Below are positions 11,549 through 37,974 of a stretch of DNA of 61,766 nucleotides, piece after piece; the stretch's first letter is position 1; each line of letters begins with the position of its first letter. Position numbers and translations under genes: made by a program. The notes beneath the pieces were generated by a model. That model was not told where the DNA came from and did no database searches. It worked only from the letters and a program-made list of their open reading frames with translations. Source of the stretch: an uncultured Alphaproteobacteria bacterium (GTDB taxonomy: Bacteria > Pseudomonadota > Alphaproteobacteria > RF32 > CAG-239); contig CALXUO010000005.1 in NCBI GenBank assembly GCA_944391695.1, positions 1 to 61,766 on the forward strand, read 5' to 3'.

Positions 11549-14365
11549 ATGGCTTTTGACTTTAGTTCGTATGAGCAATTGCTTAATGAGGACACAACCT
11601 CGCCTGAAAGCATCAATGAAATGATTAAAGAGCTTGATACTTTAGATGTAGGGCTTGCTTATGACGATTTGGTAAAACTAAGAAGCTTAAAAGAACGGGC
11701 CTCAGAAAAATTGAACGCTAAACCTCAATCTTCGCCACAAAGAAATAATAATGAAAATATTGCCCCTAATGCAAATATAAGGGTTGAAGACGGCCCGAGC
11801 TTATTAGACAGCAAACAAAACAATCAAGAGCGACGCGAAATGGTGGGTAAAGAATTTAGAGATGGAGTTTTTACCTCTCAGGCTCATAGAGATTTTTATA
11901 TTGAGCAGTTGCTTAAAGGCGAAATTGAGATACCTTCATCAGAAGAAAATCGCGCCAAACTGGATGCATTGACCGGAGGGAGCGAAGGAATTAGCTCTTT
12001 GCAAGAAAAATTAGCCCTTGAAACCGTGCAAAAATATGCTCTAAATTATACAGAAAATACAACTTATGGGGCCGCGAAAGAAAAAGTTATTGATGATAAA
12101 CAAAGTAAAAAACTTAATGATTTGGGCCTTAAGGATGCTCTTAATAACTACCTTAAAGTGTCTAAAAAAGATGAAACTGCTTTTATTTTGCGAGAAGCAC
12201 AAAAAGCCGTTATTGACTGCCAAATAGGCGGAGAAAAACCTTATAAAGAATATGTTGATAAACTTACAACTCTCAGAGATAACACCTCAAAGTGGCGCTT
12301 TATTCGCCGAAGAAAACTTAATAAAGTTATTAAAGACTTGGATCCGGTCGCTTATTGGAAAAATAAAAGAGATCAATATTTGGAGCCGACATCTTTATCC
12401 AGAGCGGATGATTTAATGGCTCAGAATCGTTATATCAAAAAAGCCGATAAGGCCGATAAAGACAAACAATTTGATAAAATTGCTTCCAAGCTTGAGGATG
12501 CAATCGAAATAAGGCGCAAAGATGCCTCTATGAAATGGTTTAGCAAAAATTTTGGCGCTAAAATTAAATTAAAAACTAAAATTTTGTTCAACAAATCGCC
12601 AAAACGTTTGACCAAAAAATTGCTTAAGGTCGGAACAATCAAAAAACTTAATGATTATGTCGGAAAACTTGACACCGATATTACAGCAGCAAAACAAGAA
12701 GAATTTGCAGATCGGCATATGATTAAAGCCAAAAATTTGAAGCTTAATTTGTTGAACACTTTAAAATCAAGCTGCCAAGCGCAAAGTTCCAACCTGGAAG
12801 GCCAAAGAAAATCGGTAATTGAAGCCTTGGGTAATGATGATATTGCTACTGCTGAAAAAACTTTTGATAATTTTATGCAAAATTTGCAAAAACGCGTAAA
12901 TGTTGTTAATGAACAATATGAAGAAAGTTTGCAATCATCTCAGCAGGTTAAACTTTATAAAAAGCTTCATGGTGAATTGCCCAAAAATGGTAAGGTAAAT
13001 CAGGAAATTATTACTACCAGTACTGTCTTGCAACAATTGTGCCAAGAGATGGGGTATCATGATATTGAATCCCTGCTCAGAGCAAACAACGTGCCTGAAA
13101 AAGAAATTGCCGCTATCAAAGAGAAACTGGAACCTAAAAAACAAGAAAGACCTGAAAAGCTATCAGAGCCTATTAATGAAGTTAAAGAAGATACCCCGAT
13201 TAATGAAGTTAGAGAAAAAACACCTGTTAATGAACAGCAAGCTGCTACATTGGGAAAAGATGCTAACATCAGAGGAGAAAATGCCGATTTGGCTTTGGAG
13301 GGGTATACCAAAGATGAAAATGCTTATGTTAATGATGACACCAAAGATACAGTTTTATTCAATATTGCCGAAGATAACTCCCGTTATGATTTGATTACCA
13401 AAGATAAAGACGGTAATGATCGTGAACCTACGGAAGCTGAAGTTAAGGCCATGGTTCAACAAATGGCTAAAGATGGTATTAAAGAAATTACGCTTGAACC
13501 AGGTTTTGCTCCGGAAACTGAAGCTTTGTTTGTAAAAACTTTAGAAGAAAATAACATTGCAATAACCAACAAAGAAGAAGTTGAGCAACGACAAGCAGAA
13601 GCTGACAAACTGAATATTGTGCAAAATGAGGATGAGGGCAAGCCTAAAGATGAGACCAAACCGGTTGTGCAAAACGAGGCTACTGATAAAACAGAAGAAA
13701 AACCAAACAGACGGAAAAATACTAGACAGAAACCTGAGCAAGTTATCAAGTTAGAAAGAGGAGAAATTGATTATAAGACCGTGTTTACCGCCGCAATCAA
13801 TTCAGCCAAAACTGCTGAGGAGCAAATTGATAAAATTAAATTGATTGATCGGATACAAAAAGGTGAAAAACTGAGTTCAGAAGAAATTAACCGATCTCTC
13901 GGTAAGGGGACTCAACAAGCAGAGTTTTTCCTTAATTTGTCTGCTGTAAGAGATTATGAAAAAGATCCCGACTATAAAAAAGATAAAGATTTGAGACAAT
14001 GGGTTGAAGATGAAAAAGCGGCGGCCGGAATTGTTGGTGGGAGTGTAGAGAAGTTGTCAGTTAAACTTTCAACAATAACTGATTTGGCTCAAGGTCATAA
14101 GACCTTGGGGGATCTTGAAAAAGATAATGCTTATAGAAACCTGCCCAAATATGCTCAACAAGCAGCCAAAAATTTGGTGAACCTTAATAATAATGAAGAT
14201 CTTTCCCCTAAGCAAAAAACTGTGTTGCAAGGGCAGATTTTAAACCGCGTAATTGAGGGAAAAGAGCAGTACAAAAAGCATACTGAGATGGTTTTGAAAA
14301 CTAAGGACAAAGGCAAATCCAAGGATGCTCCCAAAATTTCTCAAAAAGATAATGGACGTTCTTAA
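11549..14365 (+). CDS. Large hydrophilic hypothetical protein (938 aa, Lys/Glu-rich)
   Basis: Long ORF with AAGGAG Shine-Dalgarno and a downstream terminator; no signal peptide, TM segment or recognisable domain. Confidence 0.85.
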   Translation: MAFDFSSYEQLLNEDTTSPESINEMIKELDTLDVGLAYDDLVKLRSLKERASEKLNAKPQSSPQRNNNENIAPNANIRVEDGPSLLDSKQNNQERREMVGKEFRDGVFTSQAHRDFYIEQLLKGEIEIPSSEENRAKLDALTGGSEGISSLQEKLALETVQKYALNYTENTTYGAAKEKVIDDKQSKKLNDLGLKDALNNYLKVSKKDETAFILREAQKAVIDCQIGGEKPYKEYVDKLTTLRDNTSKWRFIRRRKLNKVIKDLDPVAYWKNKRDQYLEPTSLSRADDLMAQNRYIKKADKADKDKQFDKIASKLEDAIEIRRKDASMKWFSKNFGAKIKLKTKILFNKSPKRLTKKLLKVGTIKKLNDYVGKLDTDITAAKQEEFADRHMIKAKNLKLNLLNTLKSSCQAQSSNLEGQRKSVIEALGNDDIATAEKTFDNFMQNLQKRVNVVNEQYEESLQSSQQVKLYKKLHGELPKNGKVNQEIITTSTVLQQLCQEMGYHDIESLLRANNVPEKEIAAIKEKLEPKKQERPEKLSEPINEVKEDTPINEVREKTPVNEQQAATLGKDANIRGENADLALEGYTKDENAYVNDDTKDTVLFNIAEDNSRYDLITKDKDGNDREPTEAEVKAMVQQMAKDGIKEITLEPGFAPETEALFVKTLEENNIAITNKEEVEQRQAEADKLNIVQNEDEGKPKDETKPVVQNEATDKTEEKPNRRKNTRQKPEQVIKLERGEIDYKTVFTAAINSAKTAEEQIDKIKLIDRIQKGEKLSSEEINRSLGKGTQQAEFFLNLSAVRDYEKDPDYKKDKDLRQWVEDEKAAAGIVGGSVEKLSVKLSTITDLAQGHKTLGDLEKDNAYRNLPKYAQQAAKNLVNLNNNEDLSPKQKTVLQGQILNRVIEGKEQYKKHTEMVLKTKDKGKSKDAPKISQKDNGRS
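13169..13234 (+). repeat. 27-bp in-frame tandem repeat, about 2.5 copies
   Basis: Encodes PINEVKEDT-PINEVREKT-PVNE; copies start at 13169, 13196 and 13223. Confidence 0.75.
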
Positions 14366-14373
14366 TATAATCA

Positions 14374-14410
14374 AAAAAATCCCCTAAAAATAATTTTTAG
14401 GGGATTTTTT
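14374..14410. terminator. Bidirectional intrinsic terminator
   Basis: Perfect 17-bp inverted repeat AAAAAATCCCCTAAAAA-TAA-TTTTTAGGGGATTTTTT between convergent genes. Confidence 0.9.
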
Positions 14411-14443
14411 CATATGGCTTCAACATCTTATGGCCAATAACAC

Positions 14444-17400
14444 CTACGGTGTTGCCTCTTTGCATATATCTTTATGCGGATGTTTGTTGCTAGTACCATT
14501 AGTTATATCTGTACAAAAGGCCTCGTCCTCCGATATATCTTCATTGGGGTCTTTACCTTCGGCAGAACAATAGCTTGCCTGATCTTTTGCCTGAGTGTTT
14601 ATATCCGTATCATAAATATCGGGATTGCAGGCGCATATCTCTTTATGCGGATAATTAATCCACTGATTATTAACCTTGGCCGAACAGAAAGGATCTTCGC
14701 TTAGATTGGTGTTTGCTACCATTCCTTCAAATGTATTACAATATGCGGCTTGATCTTGCGTCTGTGTAGTTATGCCTGTGTCATAAATCCTTGTATCACA
14801 TAGACATAACTCACGATGTGGATAGTTCCTGGATACACCGTCTATAATATCGGTACAAAAAGCTTCATCTTTTAGATCTGTATTGACATCTTGCCCCATA
14901 TTCTCACAATAAGTGTATTCATTGGTAGTGTCCGATGTAGTTTCCGTATCATAGGTTTTGGAATCGCAGACACATACCTCTTTATGCGGACGAATTGTTG
15001 ATGAGTTTCCATTTTTCTCAATACAAAAGGCTTTTTCCGTTAAACTGGTATTAGCCTTTTTGCCAAGTTTTTCACAATATTGGGTTTGGTCACTTGTAGA
15101 TGATGATAGGTTAATCTCATAAACATCTTTACAAATACATTTCTTGTATTTAGTTACTCCATTATCTGAGCAAGAGTCTGAATTATATGCGTATGTGTCA
15201 TCATCACAGGTTAGAGAATACGAGCTATCACACGAACAACCACTATATAATGTTGCTCCTGATACAACAGTGCCATCGGCCGATACACTCTTAGATTGAC
15301 AAGAATCTCCTGATGTTTGTTGTCCTGCTCCGCATGATTTATAACCTGATGAGCATACACATTGTGAATATAAAGTCTTTCCTTCAATGGTGCATGACGG
15401 TACACCATTCTGGTCATATTTAGACTCTGCGCATTCCAACTTATATTCTAAGCCACAACTGCAGCTTCTGTAGAGCGCTTCGTTGGTAGGTCTGGTTTCA
15501 CCCGGGACCGTCCCTTTGATTGTGCAATAATTAAGCTCGCTTTCTATAACAGCTCCTTGGTCTTCACAATCACTGTATGTATAGGTGTAATCAGCTGCGC
15601 ACCCGCATCCCTTATAAAGTTTGGACGAACCAAGCAGGCAGTAGTCTTTGGCATAATCCTCCGGTACAACCTCTCCGGTTCCGTTTGGACAGGCATATTT
15701 ATACTCGCTGCCGCATTCACATGCCGTATAATATCTGACTTTCTTTTCTTGGGTTGTAACACTACCATCATCTCCTGTAGATGTAACCGTTTCAAAAATC
15801 TCGCAATAATCCTGTTCATTGGCCGGCTTAATACCTTTGTTGCCGCTATCTTCCGCCTCACAGGTATATTTGTATATTGATTGATCGCATTCACATGACG
15901 CATAAACAGGATTGCCTAAACTTCCGTCTTCTAGTACCGGAATACATTTCTGCCCCTTGGAAGTATTGGTTCCGGCACAGCCGACATAAGAGCTCGGACA
16001 CGGACACGATTTATATAAACGATTGCCATTGGCGTCTATACAGGCATCTCCTAAGTATTCAGGATCATATCCCATACATGAATACTTGAATCCGGTTTCA
16101 TAACAGTTGTTGCTGTCAATACAAGTTGCATATTTGGTTACTCCCAAACTGTCATCATCGGAGGAAATGCATCTTCCGCCTTCACCGGTTTGAGCTTCGG
16201 TACAAATCTTATAACTTATTTCTTGATAGGGTGAGCAGGTCTCAATTCCTGAACAAGTGCTGTAATGGGTGGTCGTATTGCCGGATGAATCTTTTTGAGT
16301 ACACTTTTCCCCACTTAAATTTTCGCTTTCGCAGGTTTCAGACGTATACCAGTTGTTGGGACATTTACATAAATACTTGATACTCTGTTTGCCCTCTTCA
16401 TCTGTATAAACACATGGCGAATAACTTACTTGGTTGGTATCACATGCGGTAACATGACCTTCGCTACACTGACTATCAGGTTTTATGCACTGTTTATAAT
16501 ATTTAACCCCATTTAATTCACAGTAATTGCCGACACCAACCTCTCCATCTTCACAGACCTCGGTATAACCATTGGCGCAGGCACATCTCTCATAATAGGT
16601 TATATCATCGCGAATACACGGGTTAATACCTATTTGCAATGGACCATTACAGGTTTCCGTTATAATTGTTGAACAGGTGTCTTTGTCAGTACAACTTTCA
16701 TAATATGAAACTCCTTTAAGATTGCACGGCTCTCCTTCCCCGACTTGATTTGACGGACAAACTTTGTAACCAGCCGGACAACTACATGATTTGTATCCTC
16801 CGATATTGCCTTGATTATCCTGGCACGCCTGACCAACCGGAATTAACGGCGATTCACACATCTCCGTATATTCCCACGTACATTCTATTACGGAACATTG
16901 ATAATATTTCTGTCCGCAACCATTATCTTTCCATACACCTGTCGGCTTCTTGCCACCTGGACATCCATAGTAATTATCTGTCCAATTTTCAGGTAGGGCA
17001 TCAGGTATGCATTCACATGCTTTGTATTTACCATTGCATTCGGTGCCGACACCTTTATACCTTCCGCTGCCATCCTCATCGCATACTTCAGTATATTCGG
17101 CCGAACACTCGCAATAAGGATAGAACGGTAATGTTTCTCCCAAGGTTGAGGCCGGCAAAGTATCATCAGAATCAAGCATACTTTGTGTTACTTCTTGCTT
17201 GCACGGATTGCCTGATAATAAACCACCGCAATTATACTTGTGGTGCTGATAGGCTTTGGCACATCTGCATTCACGCCAGAATTTCTTGCCGTTTACAATT
17301 ATATGATCTCCGGTTAAGTCATTGCGAACACCGCAGTTTGATGTTGTATACTTAAATTTGGAGGCATCATAATAGCAATTATATGCCCTCTTATAGTCCT

Positions 17401-20400
17401 TGTCAGCCCCATATTCACATAACTGTACAGATGCTCCTGAACCATACTTTGATGCACATTCGCTCTCTGAGGATACCGTAAAGATTGTATACGGAGATGA
17501 TACTTGTTTCCCGTTTTCTATTACACTCTTTTCACACTCACCAAGCGTCTTTACTACATTGCACGAACCACTCTTATAATGCTCTTTGCCGTCTTTCATC
17601 AAAGTGTTTCCGTCACCATAGCGGCACCATGCACTATTGGCTGATGGTTCATAAGGATATTCACATCTATCTTTGTAAACTGATGTATCACAACTTACTT
17701 CCCACTTTTCAACTCCTTCGTCATCCGTACATTTTATCATGGATGCGCCAACCCCGTAACGCCCCTGAATATTGGCTTTGTCTTGATCATAATTGCCACT
17801 GGAAGCTTCGATGGCTACGGTTGAACTCTCATCCTTGCATTGTGCCGGTGCACACTCGCTGTAATATGTAATGCCGTTGGCTTTACAGGTTTGAGCATTC
17901 TTTGCCGGTATTTGATTATCCTCGGCTGAACATTCAGTGAACGATTTTGGACAATAGCAAGGATACATCTTCAAATTGTTGCGAGAACAATATATCTTTG
18001 ACGTTCCGCCAAAAACAGCACCTTTTCCTAACTCGTTTTGACAGGTAATTGTCGTTGGAACGGATATTGAAGAATCAAGATACTTATAAGCTCCGTCTAT
18101 TGCCTTGGCATTCAAAAGCGAGGCGCAACTATCAGCGCATTCTCCATATTTTATCTTGTTGTTGCCATCTAGATTGCACATAGAACCTGTCGGCTCTTGC
18201 TCTATCGTAACACCATCAACTTCTATCGGGGAACAACTGTCAAACCAACTATCTTCCGAACATTTGCATACAACCTTTTCTACTTTCTCTTCATCTACAC
18301 AACTATATTCATATTCGCCCCCCATATAGGTGCAATCATCCTCACTTTGGTACAAAGGACGGTCTTGCGGACAGAAAACAACATAATTGGCATATTTGGT
18401 TAATACAGAACTTGGAGAGGTATTATCATTAACATCTCGTGTACAGCTAGTCCCGCTTCCGGAATATTCTTTTTTACAAGATGCTTCGTCTGGATGGTTC
18501 TCCTGACACCAATCTTCTATTGTCTTAAATTTTTCCGGACAACCACAGATATATTCAAAACTACCGTCTGTTTTTATGCACATCTCCGGACTGTCAAATC
18601 CTCCGCGAATTGTTGAAGTGTAGCCTTCATATAATTCAAGACATCCGGAATTTGTGGCTGATGAAACCGAAGCATAAGGGGTTCCGCATTTTAAATAACA
18701 ATCTGAATATTTATCAACGCTGTTTCCTAAAGCATCTACATCAAATTGGCATTTCTTGCCACCTCTTCCATAATTTTCATTTTCACATGATATACCATAA
18801 TTATCCGGACATTTACATATGTAAGAAACTATTGGATCACTAGTTTCAACCGTGGATTTATCATAGCAGGATATGTATACCGGTGAACTCTCTCCTTCCA
18901 ATAAACACTCATTGACAGTCGGTTTTACTACACCTTTATCCGGACAAGCCAATACAAATTTGGTATATTTATAGTCATCGGCAGAACCATCGGAATCTAA
19001 AGTGCATGGAGTTCCAAAACCAACATAATCTTTCATGCAGTTATAACCTGATTCTATTTTGTCTTGATTGGCGGCACACCAATCTTCTTTGGTTTGATAT
19101 TCCGAGGCACAGGCTATGTCAGCATAATACACAATATCTCCAGTATTGCTTGGAGCATTTTTACTATATGTCATCATCATCGCCCGAGTGGCCCTAAGCG
19201 GTGTGGTACGACATTCTTTACCAACTCCTACTGCTTGTAATAAACAGTTTTCGCTTGAATCTTCTAGAGAACACCAATCCTCTATTGTCTTTAATTCGCT
19301 GCCGCAAGAACATCCCATATATGCCTTGGAATCCGCGGATCCGTTAGGATAATAGCACTCCGTAGGAGTTCCGTTAGGACACAAATTCTGAGCGATATCA
19401 GCATTGTCCGTTAAAAAGTTTTCGCAATATTTGCAGATATTTACAATCTTGGTAGCATAGGTGTTGGTGTCAATTATACGGCATCTATCAGCTACCGGAG
19501 AAGCTTGGTTAGAATATTTGTTTGAGTAGTCTTTGCATCTGCCGGAATCTGATGTTTCAACCGAATATTTCCAATTTGTAATTTCATCGCAAACTGCTAT
19601 GTCTGATGAAAATTCCGTGTATTTTACCAATGTGTTGCCTTCTGTATCTTTATCAAGCTTACATTCCGTTGCCTCAATACCATAATATTTATCAAGACAT
19701 GTACTGTCATTGCCGTGGTTTGATGCACACCATTCTTTGAGCGTTTGTGCATCTTTCGAGCAAGAGCATTTATAGACAACCTTGTCGCTTCCGCTTATGG
19801 CCGGAATGGAGCAAGACGTCATTTCCCCGTTGGATGCACTGCATGAAGTTGGGCGATCGGATGAATAATTTTGACAGTAAAATCCTACATATTTTATTAC
19901 CCCGTCATCCTTGCAAGCATACGGAAAGTCACTACTGTAGGTCGAGCTTAAATCTGTACTGAACCAACCTTCATCCTTCTTTTCGGCTATAAGCTCTTTA
20001 CAATCTTTAACATTTTTCATATCACAGGTGAAACCTAAGCAATATGCACTTCCACAATTGACATAGCAAGGAATGGCAGCTTCTGTTCCGTCAACCCCGC
20101 ATGAAGAAAAATAAGATGTTTGATAATCAACCGGACATGCTGTAAAATATGAAATGTCATAGACTAGACAATATGGAGTCTCAGGATCCCCTTCTTTCTT
20201 GGAGCAGCTTTGTCTTGAAACACCTCCGTATCCAGCCGCTTGCGATTTACCACAATTGGTCGATGATGATATTTTGCTTAAATAGCTTTCCGAGGTAATA
20301 CCTTGTGTCTTGCAAAGATTGGGATTGTCTTTAGACCATATACCCTTAACACCGTTTCTGTACCCATCGCAATATTCCATATTGCTGACGTCTATCGTAT

Positions 20401-20704
20401 CAGAAACATTGTATATAAAACTTTCGGGACATTCTTTAACCGTGATCTCTTTTGTACCTTTGCAACAATTAACTTGCCGGCAATTTTCCGATGTATTGTG
20501 AAGTTTGCAATCAATTGCGCCTGAACCAATATAGGCTTCCGGACAAGCACCTTTATTACACAACGAATTTGTTTCGTCTTCTGAGGCTCCATACAGAATA
20601 ACCCCATATTCTGTTTCGCTTACAAGCCTGACTGCAGCATAACTGATATTGCACAAACAAAGAACTGTTAATACAGCAAAAAATATCTTACCAATCTTTC
20701 GCAT
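14444..20704 (-). CDS. Giant secreted cysteine-rich modular repeat protein (2,086 aa)
   Basis: Signal peptide MRKIGKIFFAVLTVLCLCNISYA; recurring CxC-x3-Y-x2-3-C...C...Y-x2-C modules; roughly one residue in ten is Cys, estimated by eye. Confidence 0.88.
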   Translation of the reverse strand: MRKIGKIFFAVLTVLCLCNISYAAVRLVSETEYGVILYGASEDETNSLCNKGACPEAYIGSGAIDCKLHNTSENCRQVNCCKGTKEITVKECPESFIYNVSDTIDVSNMEYCDGYRNGVKGIWSKDNPNLCKTQGITSESYLSKISSSTNCGKSQAAGYGGVSRQSCSKKEGDPETPYCLVYDISYFTACPVDYQTSYFSSCGVDGTEAAIPCYVNCGSAYCLGFTCDMKNVKDCKELIAEKKDEGWFSTDLSSTYSSDFPYACKDDGVIKYVGFYCQNYSSDRPTSCSASNGEMTSCSIPAISGSDKVVYKCSCSKDAQTLKEWCASNHGNDSTCLDKYYGIEATECKLDKDTEGNTLVKYTEFSSDIAVCDEITNWKYSVETSDSGRCKDYSNKYSNQASPVADRCRIIDTNTYATKIVNICKYCENFLTDNADIAQNLCPNGTPTECYYPNGSADSKAYMGCSCGSELKTIEDWCSLEDSSENCLLQAVGVGKECRTTPLRATRAMMMTYSKNAPSNTGDIVYYADIACASEYQTKEDWCAANQDKIESGYNCMKDYVGFGTPCTLDSDGSADDYKYTKFVLACPDKGVVKPTVNECLLEGESSPVYISCYDKSTVETSDPIVSYICKCPDNYGISCENENYGRGGKKCQFDVDALGNSVDKYSDCYLKCGTPYASVSSATNSGCLELYEGYTSTIRGGFDSPEMCIKTDGSFEYICGCPEKFKTIEDWCQENHPDEASCKKEYSGSGTSCTRDVNDNTSPSSVLTKYANYVVFCPQDRPLYQSEDDCTYMGGEYEYSCVDEEKVEKVVCKCSEDSWFDSCSPIEVDGVTIEQEPTGSMCNLDGNNKIKYGECADSCASLLNAKAIDGAYKYLDSSISVPTTITCQNELGKGAVFGGTSKIYCSRNNLKMYPCYCPKSFTECSAEDNQIPAKNAQTCKANGITYYSECAPAQCKDESSTVAIEASSGNYDQDKANIQGRYGVGASMIKCTDDEGVEKWEVSCDTSVYKDRCEYPYEPSANSAWCRYGDGNTLMKDGKEHYKSGSCNVVKTLGECEKSVIENGKQVSSPYTIFTVSSESECASKYGSGASVQLCEYGADKDYKRAYNCYYDASKFKYTTSNCGVRNDLTGDHIIVNGKKFWRECRCAKAYQHHKYNCGGLLSGNPCKQEVTQSMLDSDDTLPASTLGETLPFYPYCECSAEYTEVCDEDGSGRYKGVGTECNGKYKACECIPDALPENWTDNYYGCPGGKKPTGVWKDNGCGQKYYQCSVIECTWEYTEMCESPLIPVGQACQDNQGNIGGYKSCSCPAGYKVCPSNQVGEGEPCNLKGVSYYESCTDKDTCSTIITETCNGPLQIGINPCIRDDITYYERCACANGYTEVCEDGEVGVGNYCELNGVKYYKQCIKPDSQCSEGHVTACDTNQVSYSPCVYTDEEGKQSIKYLCKCPNNWYTSETCESENLSGEKCTQKDSSGNTTTHYSTCSGIETCSPYQEISYKICTEAQTGEGGRCISSDDDSLGVTKYATCIDSNNCYETGFKYSCMGYDPEYLGDACIDANGNRLYKSCPCPSSYVGCAGTNTSKGQKCIPVLEDGSLGNPVYASCECDQSIYKYTCEAEDSGNKGIKPANEQDYCEIFETVTSTGDDGSVTTQEKKVRYYTACECGSEYKYACPNGTGEVVPEDYAKDYCLLGSSKLYKGCGCAADYTYTYSDCEDQGAVIESELNYCTIKGTVPGETRPTNEALYRSCSCGLEYKLECAESKYDQNGVPSCTIEGKTLYSQCVCSSGYKSCGAGQQTSGDSCQSKSVSADGTVVSGATLYSGCSCDSSYSLTCDDDTYAYNSDSCSDNGVTKYKKCICKDVYEINLSSSTSDQTQYCEKLGKKANTSLTEKAFCIEKNGNSSTIRPHKEVCVCDSKTYDTETTSDTTNEYTYCENMGQDVNTDLKDEAFCTDIIDGVSRNYPHRELCLCDTRIYDTGITTQTQDQAAYCNTFEGMVANTNLSEDPFCSAKVNNQWINYPHKEICACNPDIYDTDINTQAKDQASYCSAEGKDPNEDISEDEAFCTDITNGTSNKHPHKDICKEATP
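14447..15085 (-). repeat. Four C-terminal repeats of about 56 aa in the giant Cys-rich protein
   Basis: Consensus YC-x(7-8)-N-x(6-7)-FC-x11-PH(K/R)(E/D)xC-x-C-x(4)-YDT; the last copy is truncated. Confidence 0.8.
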
Positions 20705-20833
20705 TGAGGTACACTCATCCCTTTATAAAAAATACACTTCTCTTTATAATAATAACTATAAACTTTTTTGCAATAGCCTTTCTTCACTTTTGCAACATTT
20801 TTCCTAAAACTTGACAAAATATTTTACATTCCC

Positions 20834-20865
20834 AAAAAACCGCCTTTTGACAAAGGCGGTTTTTT
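20834..20865 (-). terminator. Intrinsic terminator after the RND operon
   Basis: AAAAAACCGCCTTT-TGAC-AAAGGCGGTTTTTT. Confidence 0.88.
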
Positions 20866-20881
20866 GTTTCTTTGGTGTTAT

Positions 20882-37109: not shown

Positions 37110-37974
37110 TTATTTAAAGTTATTTTTCAATTTGCAAACATTGCCGTCTAAATAACGTTGTGTTGGACAACTTTTTTCGCACAATCTTTCATTGTAATCC
37201 AAAAAAATATCTGCAATTTCATCACACTCATGGCAAATTCCTGCGCTATCCATCAGAGGCTTATCAGTCGGACAATTCGGAATACTCAAAATGTTACCTC
37301 CTATAGCATATAAAATCGTACGGTTAGGACACCAATCCTCACAATCATGCTCTATATTACAGTGTGTTGGTAAACGAATGGCTTTTTCTTCATCACAACT
37401 AAAACATTTCCCATCCCATCTTTGCAAAGGTTTATCTTCTGGACATTGTAACTCACAGTGCTTGACATTCAGATGCGGGTACTCTTTATAAACCCGATTA
37501 GGACATTTTGCACAATCTTCTTTGGAATAGTCGTAATTACGAGGTTCTTGACAAGAAAAACATTTTCCAGAATAGAGCAAAGGTTTATCATCCGGACATT
37601 TTCCGTCAATCGCTGATGGAGCGGTAAACCATTCTCCCTCCAGTATATTATCATTGTTTGTATTTTCTTTTTCATTATCTAAATCTTCGTTGGCATCGGC
37701 TAGTGAGCCATAACAACTGCCTGTCTTAGAGCGATACGGCTTGTTTTCTGGGCAAGAAATTAAAATACATCTGAGTGTTTTATCTAAAAAAATAATCGCC
37801 GAGGTTGCGGTTGGGGCAATATCTTTCACAATCATCCGCATGAGCTACTTTAAACGCATATGATGCATCACAAGAAATACACTGATTAAACTGAAACACA
37901 TCACAATCTATAGCTTTTGCCGATGTAGTGATTATGACTGTAAAAAAAGTTGTTACAAGAATTAAATTTTTCAT
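37110..37974 (-). pseudogene. Secreted Cys-rich repeat protein, frameshifted at a T7 tract
   Basis: GAGGG plus ATG at 37974; signal peptide MKNLILVTTFFTVIITTSAKA. Removing one T from the run at 37786-37792 joins this frame to ORF 37110..37841, which carries four CPx(D/N)KP...GxC repeats. Confidence 0.75.

Follow-up and report, generated by a model that had tools for sequence, protein, structure and literature searches.

A lineage-restricted family of giant cysteine-rich exported proteins in uncultured gut Alphaproteobacteria, with disulfide-stapled modules predicted from comparative analysis

What kind of protein is encoded by the largest gene of a gut bacterium with a small genome, when the product is a secreted, cysteine-rich chain of more than 2,000 residues, and how would such a chain be folded, exported and held together? 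The question is raised by the gene P0001, located in a stretch of 61,766 nucleotides (hereafter the window; contig CALXUO010000005.1 of assembly GCA_944391695.1) from an uncultured member of the Alphaproteobacteria. The initial annotation, made from the sequence alone, had proposed an undescribed family of disulfide-stapled filaments or adhesins built from at least three types of module. The explanation towards which we lean, and which we consider moderately probable, is that of a stiff, protease-resistant accessory protein, either displayed on the surface or released, with an adhesin- or coat-like function.

The gene is real and conserved. It is the largest open reading frame (ORF) of the 1.37-Mb, 64-contig genome (83% complete), of which it occupies 0.46%, and to keep the largest gene of a reduced genome of 1.4 Mb must carry a real cost for the cell. 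The initial annotation gave no strand; the gene lies on the minus strand, and a reading of the same interval on the plus strand was rejected, the frame being full of stops. The product contains 178 cysteines (8.5%, compared with an average of about 1.1-1.2% across a crude gene set of the same genome) together with much serine (10.2%), glycine (7.9%) and tyrosine (7.4%); it is also rich in threonine, aspartate, glutamate and lysine, hydrophobic residues are scarce, and histidine is rare (0.7%). The predicted mature protein comprises 2,063 residues, with a mass of 225.8 kDa, an isoelectric point of 4.5 and 176 cysteines. The motifs quoted in the initial annotation were all recovered (QTLKEWC at residue 321, KTIEDWC at residues 473 and 728, and QTKEDWC at residue 538), and the CxC units that it described amount to 24 CxC motifs, one of which lies inside the signal peptide. 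Between two isolates at 99% identity, 19 residues of the giant protein differ, and no cysteine is among them.

A word-indexed search of 5.8 billion proteins returned 43 relatives, nearly all of full length (1,840-2,700 residues) and 33-56% identical; none carries a precomputed Pfam domain, and the few that are named are listed as 'hypothetical protein' from Alphaproteobacteria metagenome-assembled genomes (MAGs). An exhaustive phmmer search of 1.84 billion representatives with residues 1081-1870 as the query found 35 proteins at E <= 1e-3. The 31 loci present in species-representative genomes all belong to uncultured Alphaproteobacteria of the gut or rumen, 'Proteobacteria bacterium CAG:495' among them, a group that is common in the human and animal gut. 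Within the genus the conserved core was matched in 40 of 56 genomes, and about 29 genomes carry open frames of 1,644-2,710 residues, free of internal stops; at the level of the family, matches were confined to 7 of 23 genera and, in most of these, were small proteins of 230-600 residues with the same modules.

Comparison with described families and folds was consistently negative. P0001 gave only an insignificant Pfam match to LZ3wCH (E = 0.15), no NCBIfam match and one insignificant 22-residue match of unknown function in PHROGs, and among nine relatives Pfam found nothing significant, one distant relative matching the Lcl C-terminal (adhesin) domain weakly, at 28 bits and thus below the 34.9-bit cut-off. 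The profile of a 41-sequence orthologue alignment had no match at E <= 1 among all Protein Data Bank (PDB) sequences. In Foldseek searches of both half-models against the PDB, and of the N-terminal half against BFVD, nothing fell below E = 0.03 and all template modelling (TM) scores were under 0.1, whole-half models being poor queries for single small modules. Profile matches above curated thresholds, sought with Pfam on P0001 and the nine relatives and with NCBIfam on P0001, were likewise absent for the described cysteine-rich families (EGF, TNFR_c6, furin-like, the Giardia variant-specific surface proteins (VSPs), the Myxococcus cysteine-rich repeat, hevein/CBM18 and chlamydial OMP6), and no publication on the giant protein was found in the literature. 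A match of the modules to a described Pfam family, which the initial annotation had named as one of the results that would overturn its proposal, was therefore not seen, and the description of the family as new holds. Judged by these comparisons, the giant protein is best classed as a lineage-restricted new family, adding a domain family with probably new folds, and in it a bacterium would stack disulfide modules as eukaryotes do, instead of relying on Ig-like or beta-helix repeats.

The case for disulfide bonds comes from the same 41 orthologues, which share 33-56% overall identity. Among the 178 cysteines, 142 are at least 90% conserved and most of these are invariant. The number of cysteines in the mature chain is even in 38 of the 41 sequences, the exceptions being P0016, which aligns to just 81% of the query, P0031, which is annotated as partial, and P0033; the totals are often not divisible by four, as with 178, 182, 210 and 218. 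Moreover, cysteines are lost in twos with the flanking sequence kept: C1309 and C1327 are jointly missing from P0039 and P0042, C467 and C498 from P0010 and P0011 and, separately, from P0023, and C151 and C179 from five sequences. In the first two of these pairs, the second cysteine of a CxC motif is coupled to a cysteine of the following module, which points to staples between neighboring hairpins. The survey of dsbA genes called for at the outset found two members of the DsbA family in the genome, whose N-termini bear hydrophobic segments and whose active sites read CSFC and CFHC, and one or two DsbA-like genes in all 25 sampled genomes of the genus. P0001 thus combines the features of a Dsb substrate, namely an export signal, an even number of conserved cysteines, their loss in pairs and the presence of a DsbA-type oxidase, and we infer that disulfides form in it. 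The support for the stapled structure proposed initially is indirect, but strong.

The module architecture was analyzed by profile comparison and by AlphaFold2 models of two halves (residues 24-1200 and 950-2086), computed with the 41-sequence alignment. The mean predicted local distance difference test (pLDDT) score was 80.2 for the former and 69.9 for the latter, and the predicted TM score of about 0.3 for both is as expected of a chain of independent modules. In the N-terminal half, long paired strands dominate and short helices are added exactly at the TxxEWC sites, as assigned by DSSP; each large module combines beta-hairpins, a CxC motif and a short helix bearing T-x-x-E-W-C (pLDDT about 80-90), and alignment slices of this array are related with hhalign probabilities of 93-99.7%. 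The C-terminal half is modelled mostly as paired long strands, with one hairpin per module. A module hidden Markov model (HMM) built from 11 clean units located about 18 small modules of 32-40 residues with four cysteines each in residues 1200-1858, as well as degenerate copies in the N-terminal half; their consensus is x2-[GES]-Y-x3-C, x5-9, C and a hairpin with G-x3-Y-x2-C-x-C, and alignment slices of the C-terminal half are mutually homologous (hhalign, 95-99%). The repeats that close the chain also have four cysteines each and are 33-40% identical to one another. Large, small and C-terminal modules can thus all be recognized, and the initial annotation had likewise counted at least three types; their standing as separate types is less secure, since one pair of a large and a small module is related with 96% hhalign probability, a value that cysteine-rich composition may inflate, and the types are probably elaborations of a single four-cysteine unit. 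No tandem repeats were found at the DNA level, and hence nothing points to slippage or phase variation. Conservation is maximal at the center (74-78% non-cysteine identity in residues 1200-1300), where the core of residues 1149-1309 is rich in invariant tyrosine, tryptophan, glycine, lysine, asparagine and aspartate, and it drops to 12-28% at the N-terminal end and to 8-10% at the C-terminal end (identity is 8-13% over residues 1859-2086). The boundaries of the regions are collected in Table 1.

Table 1. Features of the giant gene, its product and its flanks (positions in the window)
Feature	Position	Strand	Description
Giant gene P0001	14444..20704	minus	2,086 codons plus stop, uninterrupted ORF
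Signal peptide	20636..20704	minus	residues 1-23; predicted signal-peptidase-I cleavage between ..SYA and AV; not a lipobox
Post-signal motif AV[RT]x[IL]xET[EQ][YF]G	20600..20635	minus	residues 24-35; conserved; disordered in AlphaFold2
Variable N-terminal Cys-rich region	19808..20599	minus	residues 36-299; non-Cys identity among orthologues 12-28%
Large-module array	17951..19807	minus	residues 300-918; at least 5 homologous modules of about 100 residues (hhalign)
Middle region, alpha+beta	17261..17950	minus	residues 919-1148; confidently modelled, conservation rising
Most conserved core	16778..17260	minus	residues 1149-1309; non-Cys identity 54-78% across orthologues
Small four-Cys hairpin modules	15131..16777	minus	residues 1310-1858; about 16 modules (module HMM, model, hhalign)
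Hypervariable C-terminal part	14447..15130	minus	residues 1859-2086; four 56-residue repeats
Promoter-like site TTGCAA, 16 nt, TATTAT	20746..20773	minus	in the 177-bp gap before the start codon; consensus match only
Terminator-like GC-rich hairpin between A and T runs	20833..20866		directly after the acrB-like stop codon
Terminator-like site, 19-bp stem and T-run	14372..14412	minus	32 bp after the giant-gene stop; before the convergent 938-residue ORF

The export of the chain across the inner membrane can be assigned with some assurance. The N-terminus, MRKIGKIFFAVLTVLCLCNISYA followed by AVRL (..NISYA/AVRL), is a signal of the signal-peptidase-I type, and its Ala-x-Ala-like cleavage site is conserved across the 41 orthologues, in agreement with the Sec-type signal noted initially. 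The two cysteines within it, C16 and C18, are poorly kept in orthologues (18% and 0%), and neither fits the lipobox pattern [LVI][ASTVI][GAS]C, being preceded by TVL and LCL, respectively. The lack of an autotransporter barrel, lipobox and RTX repeats, also noted before, agrees with the Pfam and NCBIfam scans and with the sequence: no autotransporter or type V domain was matched at E up to 1, a TpsB partner not having been searched for; the TPS (two-partner secretion) domain is absent from P0001 in both scans; and, as regards type I giant adhesins, P0001 bears a Sec signal and matched neither RTX nor Big-type families in Pfam. The C-termini of the orthologues are mutually unrelated, with no sorting signal common to all.

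On this basis, we propose the following sequence of events. The protein of about 226 kDa would be exported by Sec and its signal peptide cleaved, and the mature chain would then be oxidized in the periplasm to give roughly 88 disulfide bonds. It would consist of small beta-hairpin modules in a row, each with four cysteines, in which the second cysteine of a CxC motif bonds to a cysteine of the next module, so that neighboring hairpins are locked together and the whole becomes a stiff, acidic rod, presumably resistant to proteases. The strongly conserved central block (residues about 1150-1450) would be the likely working or binding part, while the arms, and most of all the C-terminal end, evolve rapidly, in keeping with exposed surfaces. 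In the gut niche the product would most likely act as a surface-exposed or released protein of the adhesin or coat type. The rod shape, the surface location and the adhesin role belong to our interpretation, and hints of an adhesin come from the hypervariable ends, the acidic and hydrophobic-poor composition, the sub-threshold Lcl match and the separate transcription unit. If exposed on the surface, the protein would be an obvious candidate for attachment to mucus, host cells or other microbes, and a handle for detecting or enriching these bacteria.

Several observations weigh against such a stapled surface protein: (i) DsbB (PF02600 search) and VKOR were each found in 0 of the 25 genomes of the genus, most of which are 96-100% complete, and neither they nor MauE were found in the genome itself, while DsbB is present in 14 of 15 sampled genomes from other alphaproteobacterial families; with DsbB and VKOR absent, the known recycling step of DsbA is missing from the genus, and the oxidative folding route, as read from these genomes, is incomplete by known rules; (ii) across the proteome, predicted exported proteins have even cysteine counts in 77 cases and odd counts in 95, that is, no general even bias, in a test that used a crude signal-peptide predictor and in which lipoprotein cysteines and mis-called cleavage sites blur the counts; (iii) no device for translocation across, or anchoring in, the outer membrane was recognized in P0001, no classical type II secretion system was found in the genome, and the sole secretin belongs to a type IVb pilus cluster (contig C49:55695-66662; L040), the outcome of the survey of secretion and pilus genes that had been suggested; and (iv) the lowest AlphaFold2 confidence falls on much of the most conserved core. 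The initial annotation had named no export and anchoring route; in agreement with it, neither a beta-barrel nor a lipobox nor a C-terminal signal kept among orthologues was recognized, and the lone secretin lies in a pilus cluster. The question is also sharpened, as about 88 disulfides would have to be formed without DsbB or VKOR and their bonds would have to be stable in the reducing gut lumen.

Part of this evidence would also fit other explanations. A protein that is retained in the periplasm or envelope and cross-linked by disulfides as a structural or scaffold component, much like the cysteine-rich envelope proteins of chlamydiae, is unlikely, though credible enough to be weighed seriously: a Sec signal is all that the chain offers for export, there being no barrel, lipobox or C-terminal sorting signal and no classical type II system, and several other cysteine-rich exported proteins are encoded in the genome. 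A core envelope part, on the other hand, is argued against by the clean absence of the gene from at least four complete sister genomes, by the hypervariability of both ends (8-20% identity), which is usual for exposed surfaces, and by the lack of a Pfam match to OmcB-type families. Alternatively, the protein could be a soluble colonization factor that leaves the cell through the secretin of the bundle-forming/TCP-like (toxin-coregulated pilus-like) type IVb system. TcpF of the Vibrio cholerae TCP pilus and CofJ of enterotoxigenic Escherichia coli (ETEC) are precedents for such cargo, and the cluster on C49 groups the one secretin with TcpQ, PilO, the T2SSE ATPase, T2SSF and two bundlin-type pilins. 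We nevertheless hold this route to be quite improbable, since the known cargoes are small proteins whose genes lie within the pilus operon and which bind the pilin through an N-terminal signal, whereas the giant gene lies on a different contig from the cluster and specifies a product of 226 kDa.

The cysteines might, instead of forming disulfides, bind zinc or iron in the style of zinc ribbons or metallothioneins. A strictly anaerobic, reducing habitat and a genus devoid of DsbB and VKOR would suit metal binding, and CxC motifs occur in metallothioneins too; nonetheless, the even counts that are often not multiples of four, the losses in twos rather than fours, the scarcity of histidine, a cysteine content far below metallothionein density and the conservation of DsbA-like oxidases make this very unlikely. 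Scarcely credible is a delivery protein of the polymorphic-toxin or bacteriocin type, in which an exchangeable effector would sit at the C-terminus of a conserved stalk. The C-terminal 200-400 residues are indeed almost wholly different between orthologues, but the variable ends are themselves cysteine-rich repeats, no toxin or other Pfam domain appeared in the 10 family members scanned, and no small gene of the immunity type follows, the next gene being convergent and differing between genomes; the marks of such systems, a toxin domain at the C-terminus and an immunity gene beside it, were thus not found.

The stiff, disulfide-stapled surface protein that we favor resembles several known systems and departs from each. 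TNFR, EGF/laminin-type and furin-like repeats and the Giardia VSPs are, like P0001, composed of tandem modules of about 30-40 residues held by disulfides rather than by a hydrophobic core. Giardia VSPs likewise coat an anaerobic gut organism. Eukaryotic cysteine-rich rods and coats are extracellular and elongated, which we count as a likeness to P0001 on the strength of its predicted shape and location. Nevertheless, P0001 shares no sequence or fold match with these modules; its spacing, Y-x3-C ... C ... Y-x2-C-x-C, gives four cysteines per unit, where eukaryotic modules have six or CXXC; and it differs in its bacterial host, its Sec signal and its lack of a membrane anchor. The bacterial giants LapA and SiiE (RTX), FHA (two-partner secretion) and the autotransporters have in common with P0001 a length of more than 2,000 residues, a repetitive and acidic sequence, accessory status and variable ends, but they are built from cysteine-poor Ig-like or beta-helix repeats and carry defined secretion domains, none of which is present in P0001. 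Chlamydial OmcB and OmcA are, like P0001, Sec-exported and cysteine-rich in a diderm host, and they are cross-linked by disulfides; P0001 has no homology to them, and its gene is dispensable within the genus. OmcB, of about 60 kDa and with a much lower cysteine density, is a core part of the envelope.

Precedents also exist for the incomplete oxidation route. Staphylococcus aureus has DsbA without DsbB. In Helicobacter pylori, the classical pair is replaced by DsbK and DsbI, the latter being a protein of the DsbB family (PMC4597128). Both resemble the genus described here in keeping a DsbA-type oxidase while the classical quinone-linked recycling enzyme is missing, and both differ in the client, which here is a protein of a gut alphaproteobacterium with 88 predicted disulfides. 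H. pylori, furthermore, retains the DsbB-family DsbI, whereas no PF02600 match was found in the 25 genomes of the genus, in which a DsbB variant of the H. pylori type would have been detected. A bolder combination, which we regard as doubtful, is that the four-cysteine module and the post-signal motif define a new class of bacterial surface fibril with its own route of sorting or assembly across the outer membrane and that its DsbA is re-oxidized without DsbB, VKOR or MauE; if this were true, such re-oxidation would amount to a new oxidative-folding route in anaerobes.

The genomic setting bears on whether the gene is tied to its neighbors. The order glgB, glgX, malQ, HAD, TetR, membrane-fusion protein, resistance-nodulation-division (RND) pump and giant gene is conserved, and the pump adjoins the giant gene in 27 of 31 loci. 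A functional link to the pump was set aside, because the whole glgB-glgX-malQ block is equally conserved, a hairpin separates the two genes and one orthologue locus has no pump; in view of this locus and of the hairpin, promoter-like and terminator-like sites, the adjacency is read as inherited synteny, and the giant gene would form its own transcription unit, apart from the RND operon. Downstream, the neighborhood differs between genomes. In the window, positions 11549-14365 (plus strand) hold a convergent, charged, Lys/Glu-rich ORF of 938 residues, with no signal peptide and no Pfam match, in a region of strong AT skew (0.25); it was rejected as a partner, since relatives occur at just 8 of the 31 orthologue loci. 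In four complete genomes of the genus, the acrB-like gene is followed directly by a block of flgL-like and flgK genes, the same block that follows the giant gene in locus L004, and the giant gene is missing from the slot. The gene is accordingly accessory, and dispensable, within the genus. Its apparent absence from 16 of the 56 genomes of the genus is partly an artefact of assembly. In three genomes (G198:C16, G041:C51 and G023:C12), the acrB-like gene lies 100-450 bp from a contig end, at the very point at which the giant gene would be expected next. MAG assemblies seem to be broken by this gene, with the result that presence and absence counts from MAGs underestimate it.

Further cysteine-rich proteins accompany the giant protein. 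A secreted paralogue of 367 residues (C40:20988-22091; L041:3989-5092) has the same CxC-Y modules and only 8 relatives among the 5.8 billion proteins, being restricted to the lineage as well; its mature start, KVTPVHEY, resembles the post-signal motif of the giant protein, and the motif that the two have in common might serve as a signal for sorting or assembly. At least seven small secreted cysteine-rich proteins of 200-450 residues form tandem clusters (C28:23523-26375, C63:19388-22401 and C43:22-999; L042 and L043); their mature N-terminus reads [LF]DC-x-[QR]RPTCEE[LM]GY, the one member scanned had no Pfam match, and the family is carried by a sister genome as well (L052:6423-8264). Elsewhere in the window, at 37110-37841 on the minus strand, an ORF of 243 residues with 8.6% cysteine and no Pfam match contains four CP[ED]DKP...G-x-C-x2-C repeats. 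Contig C49, finally, encodes a secreted, Ala/Glu/Lys-rich and probably coiled-coil protein of 1,486 residues with 26 cysteines (C49:43373-47833), in addition to secreted ORFs of 1,681 and 1,308 residues.

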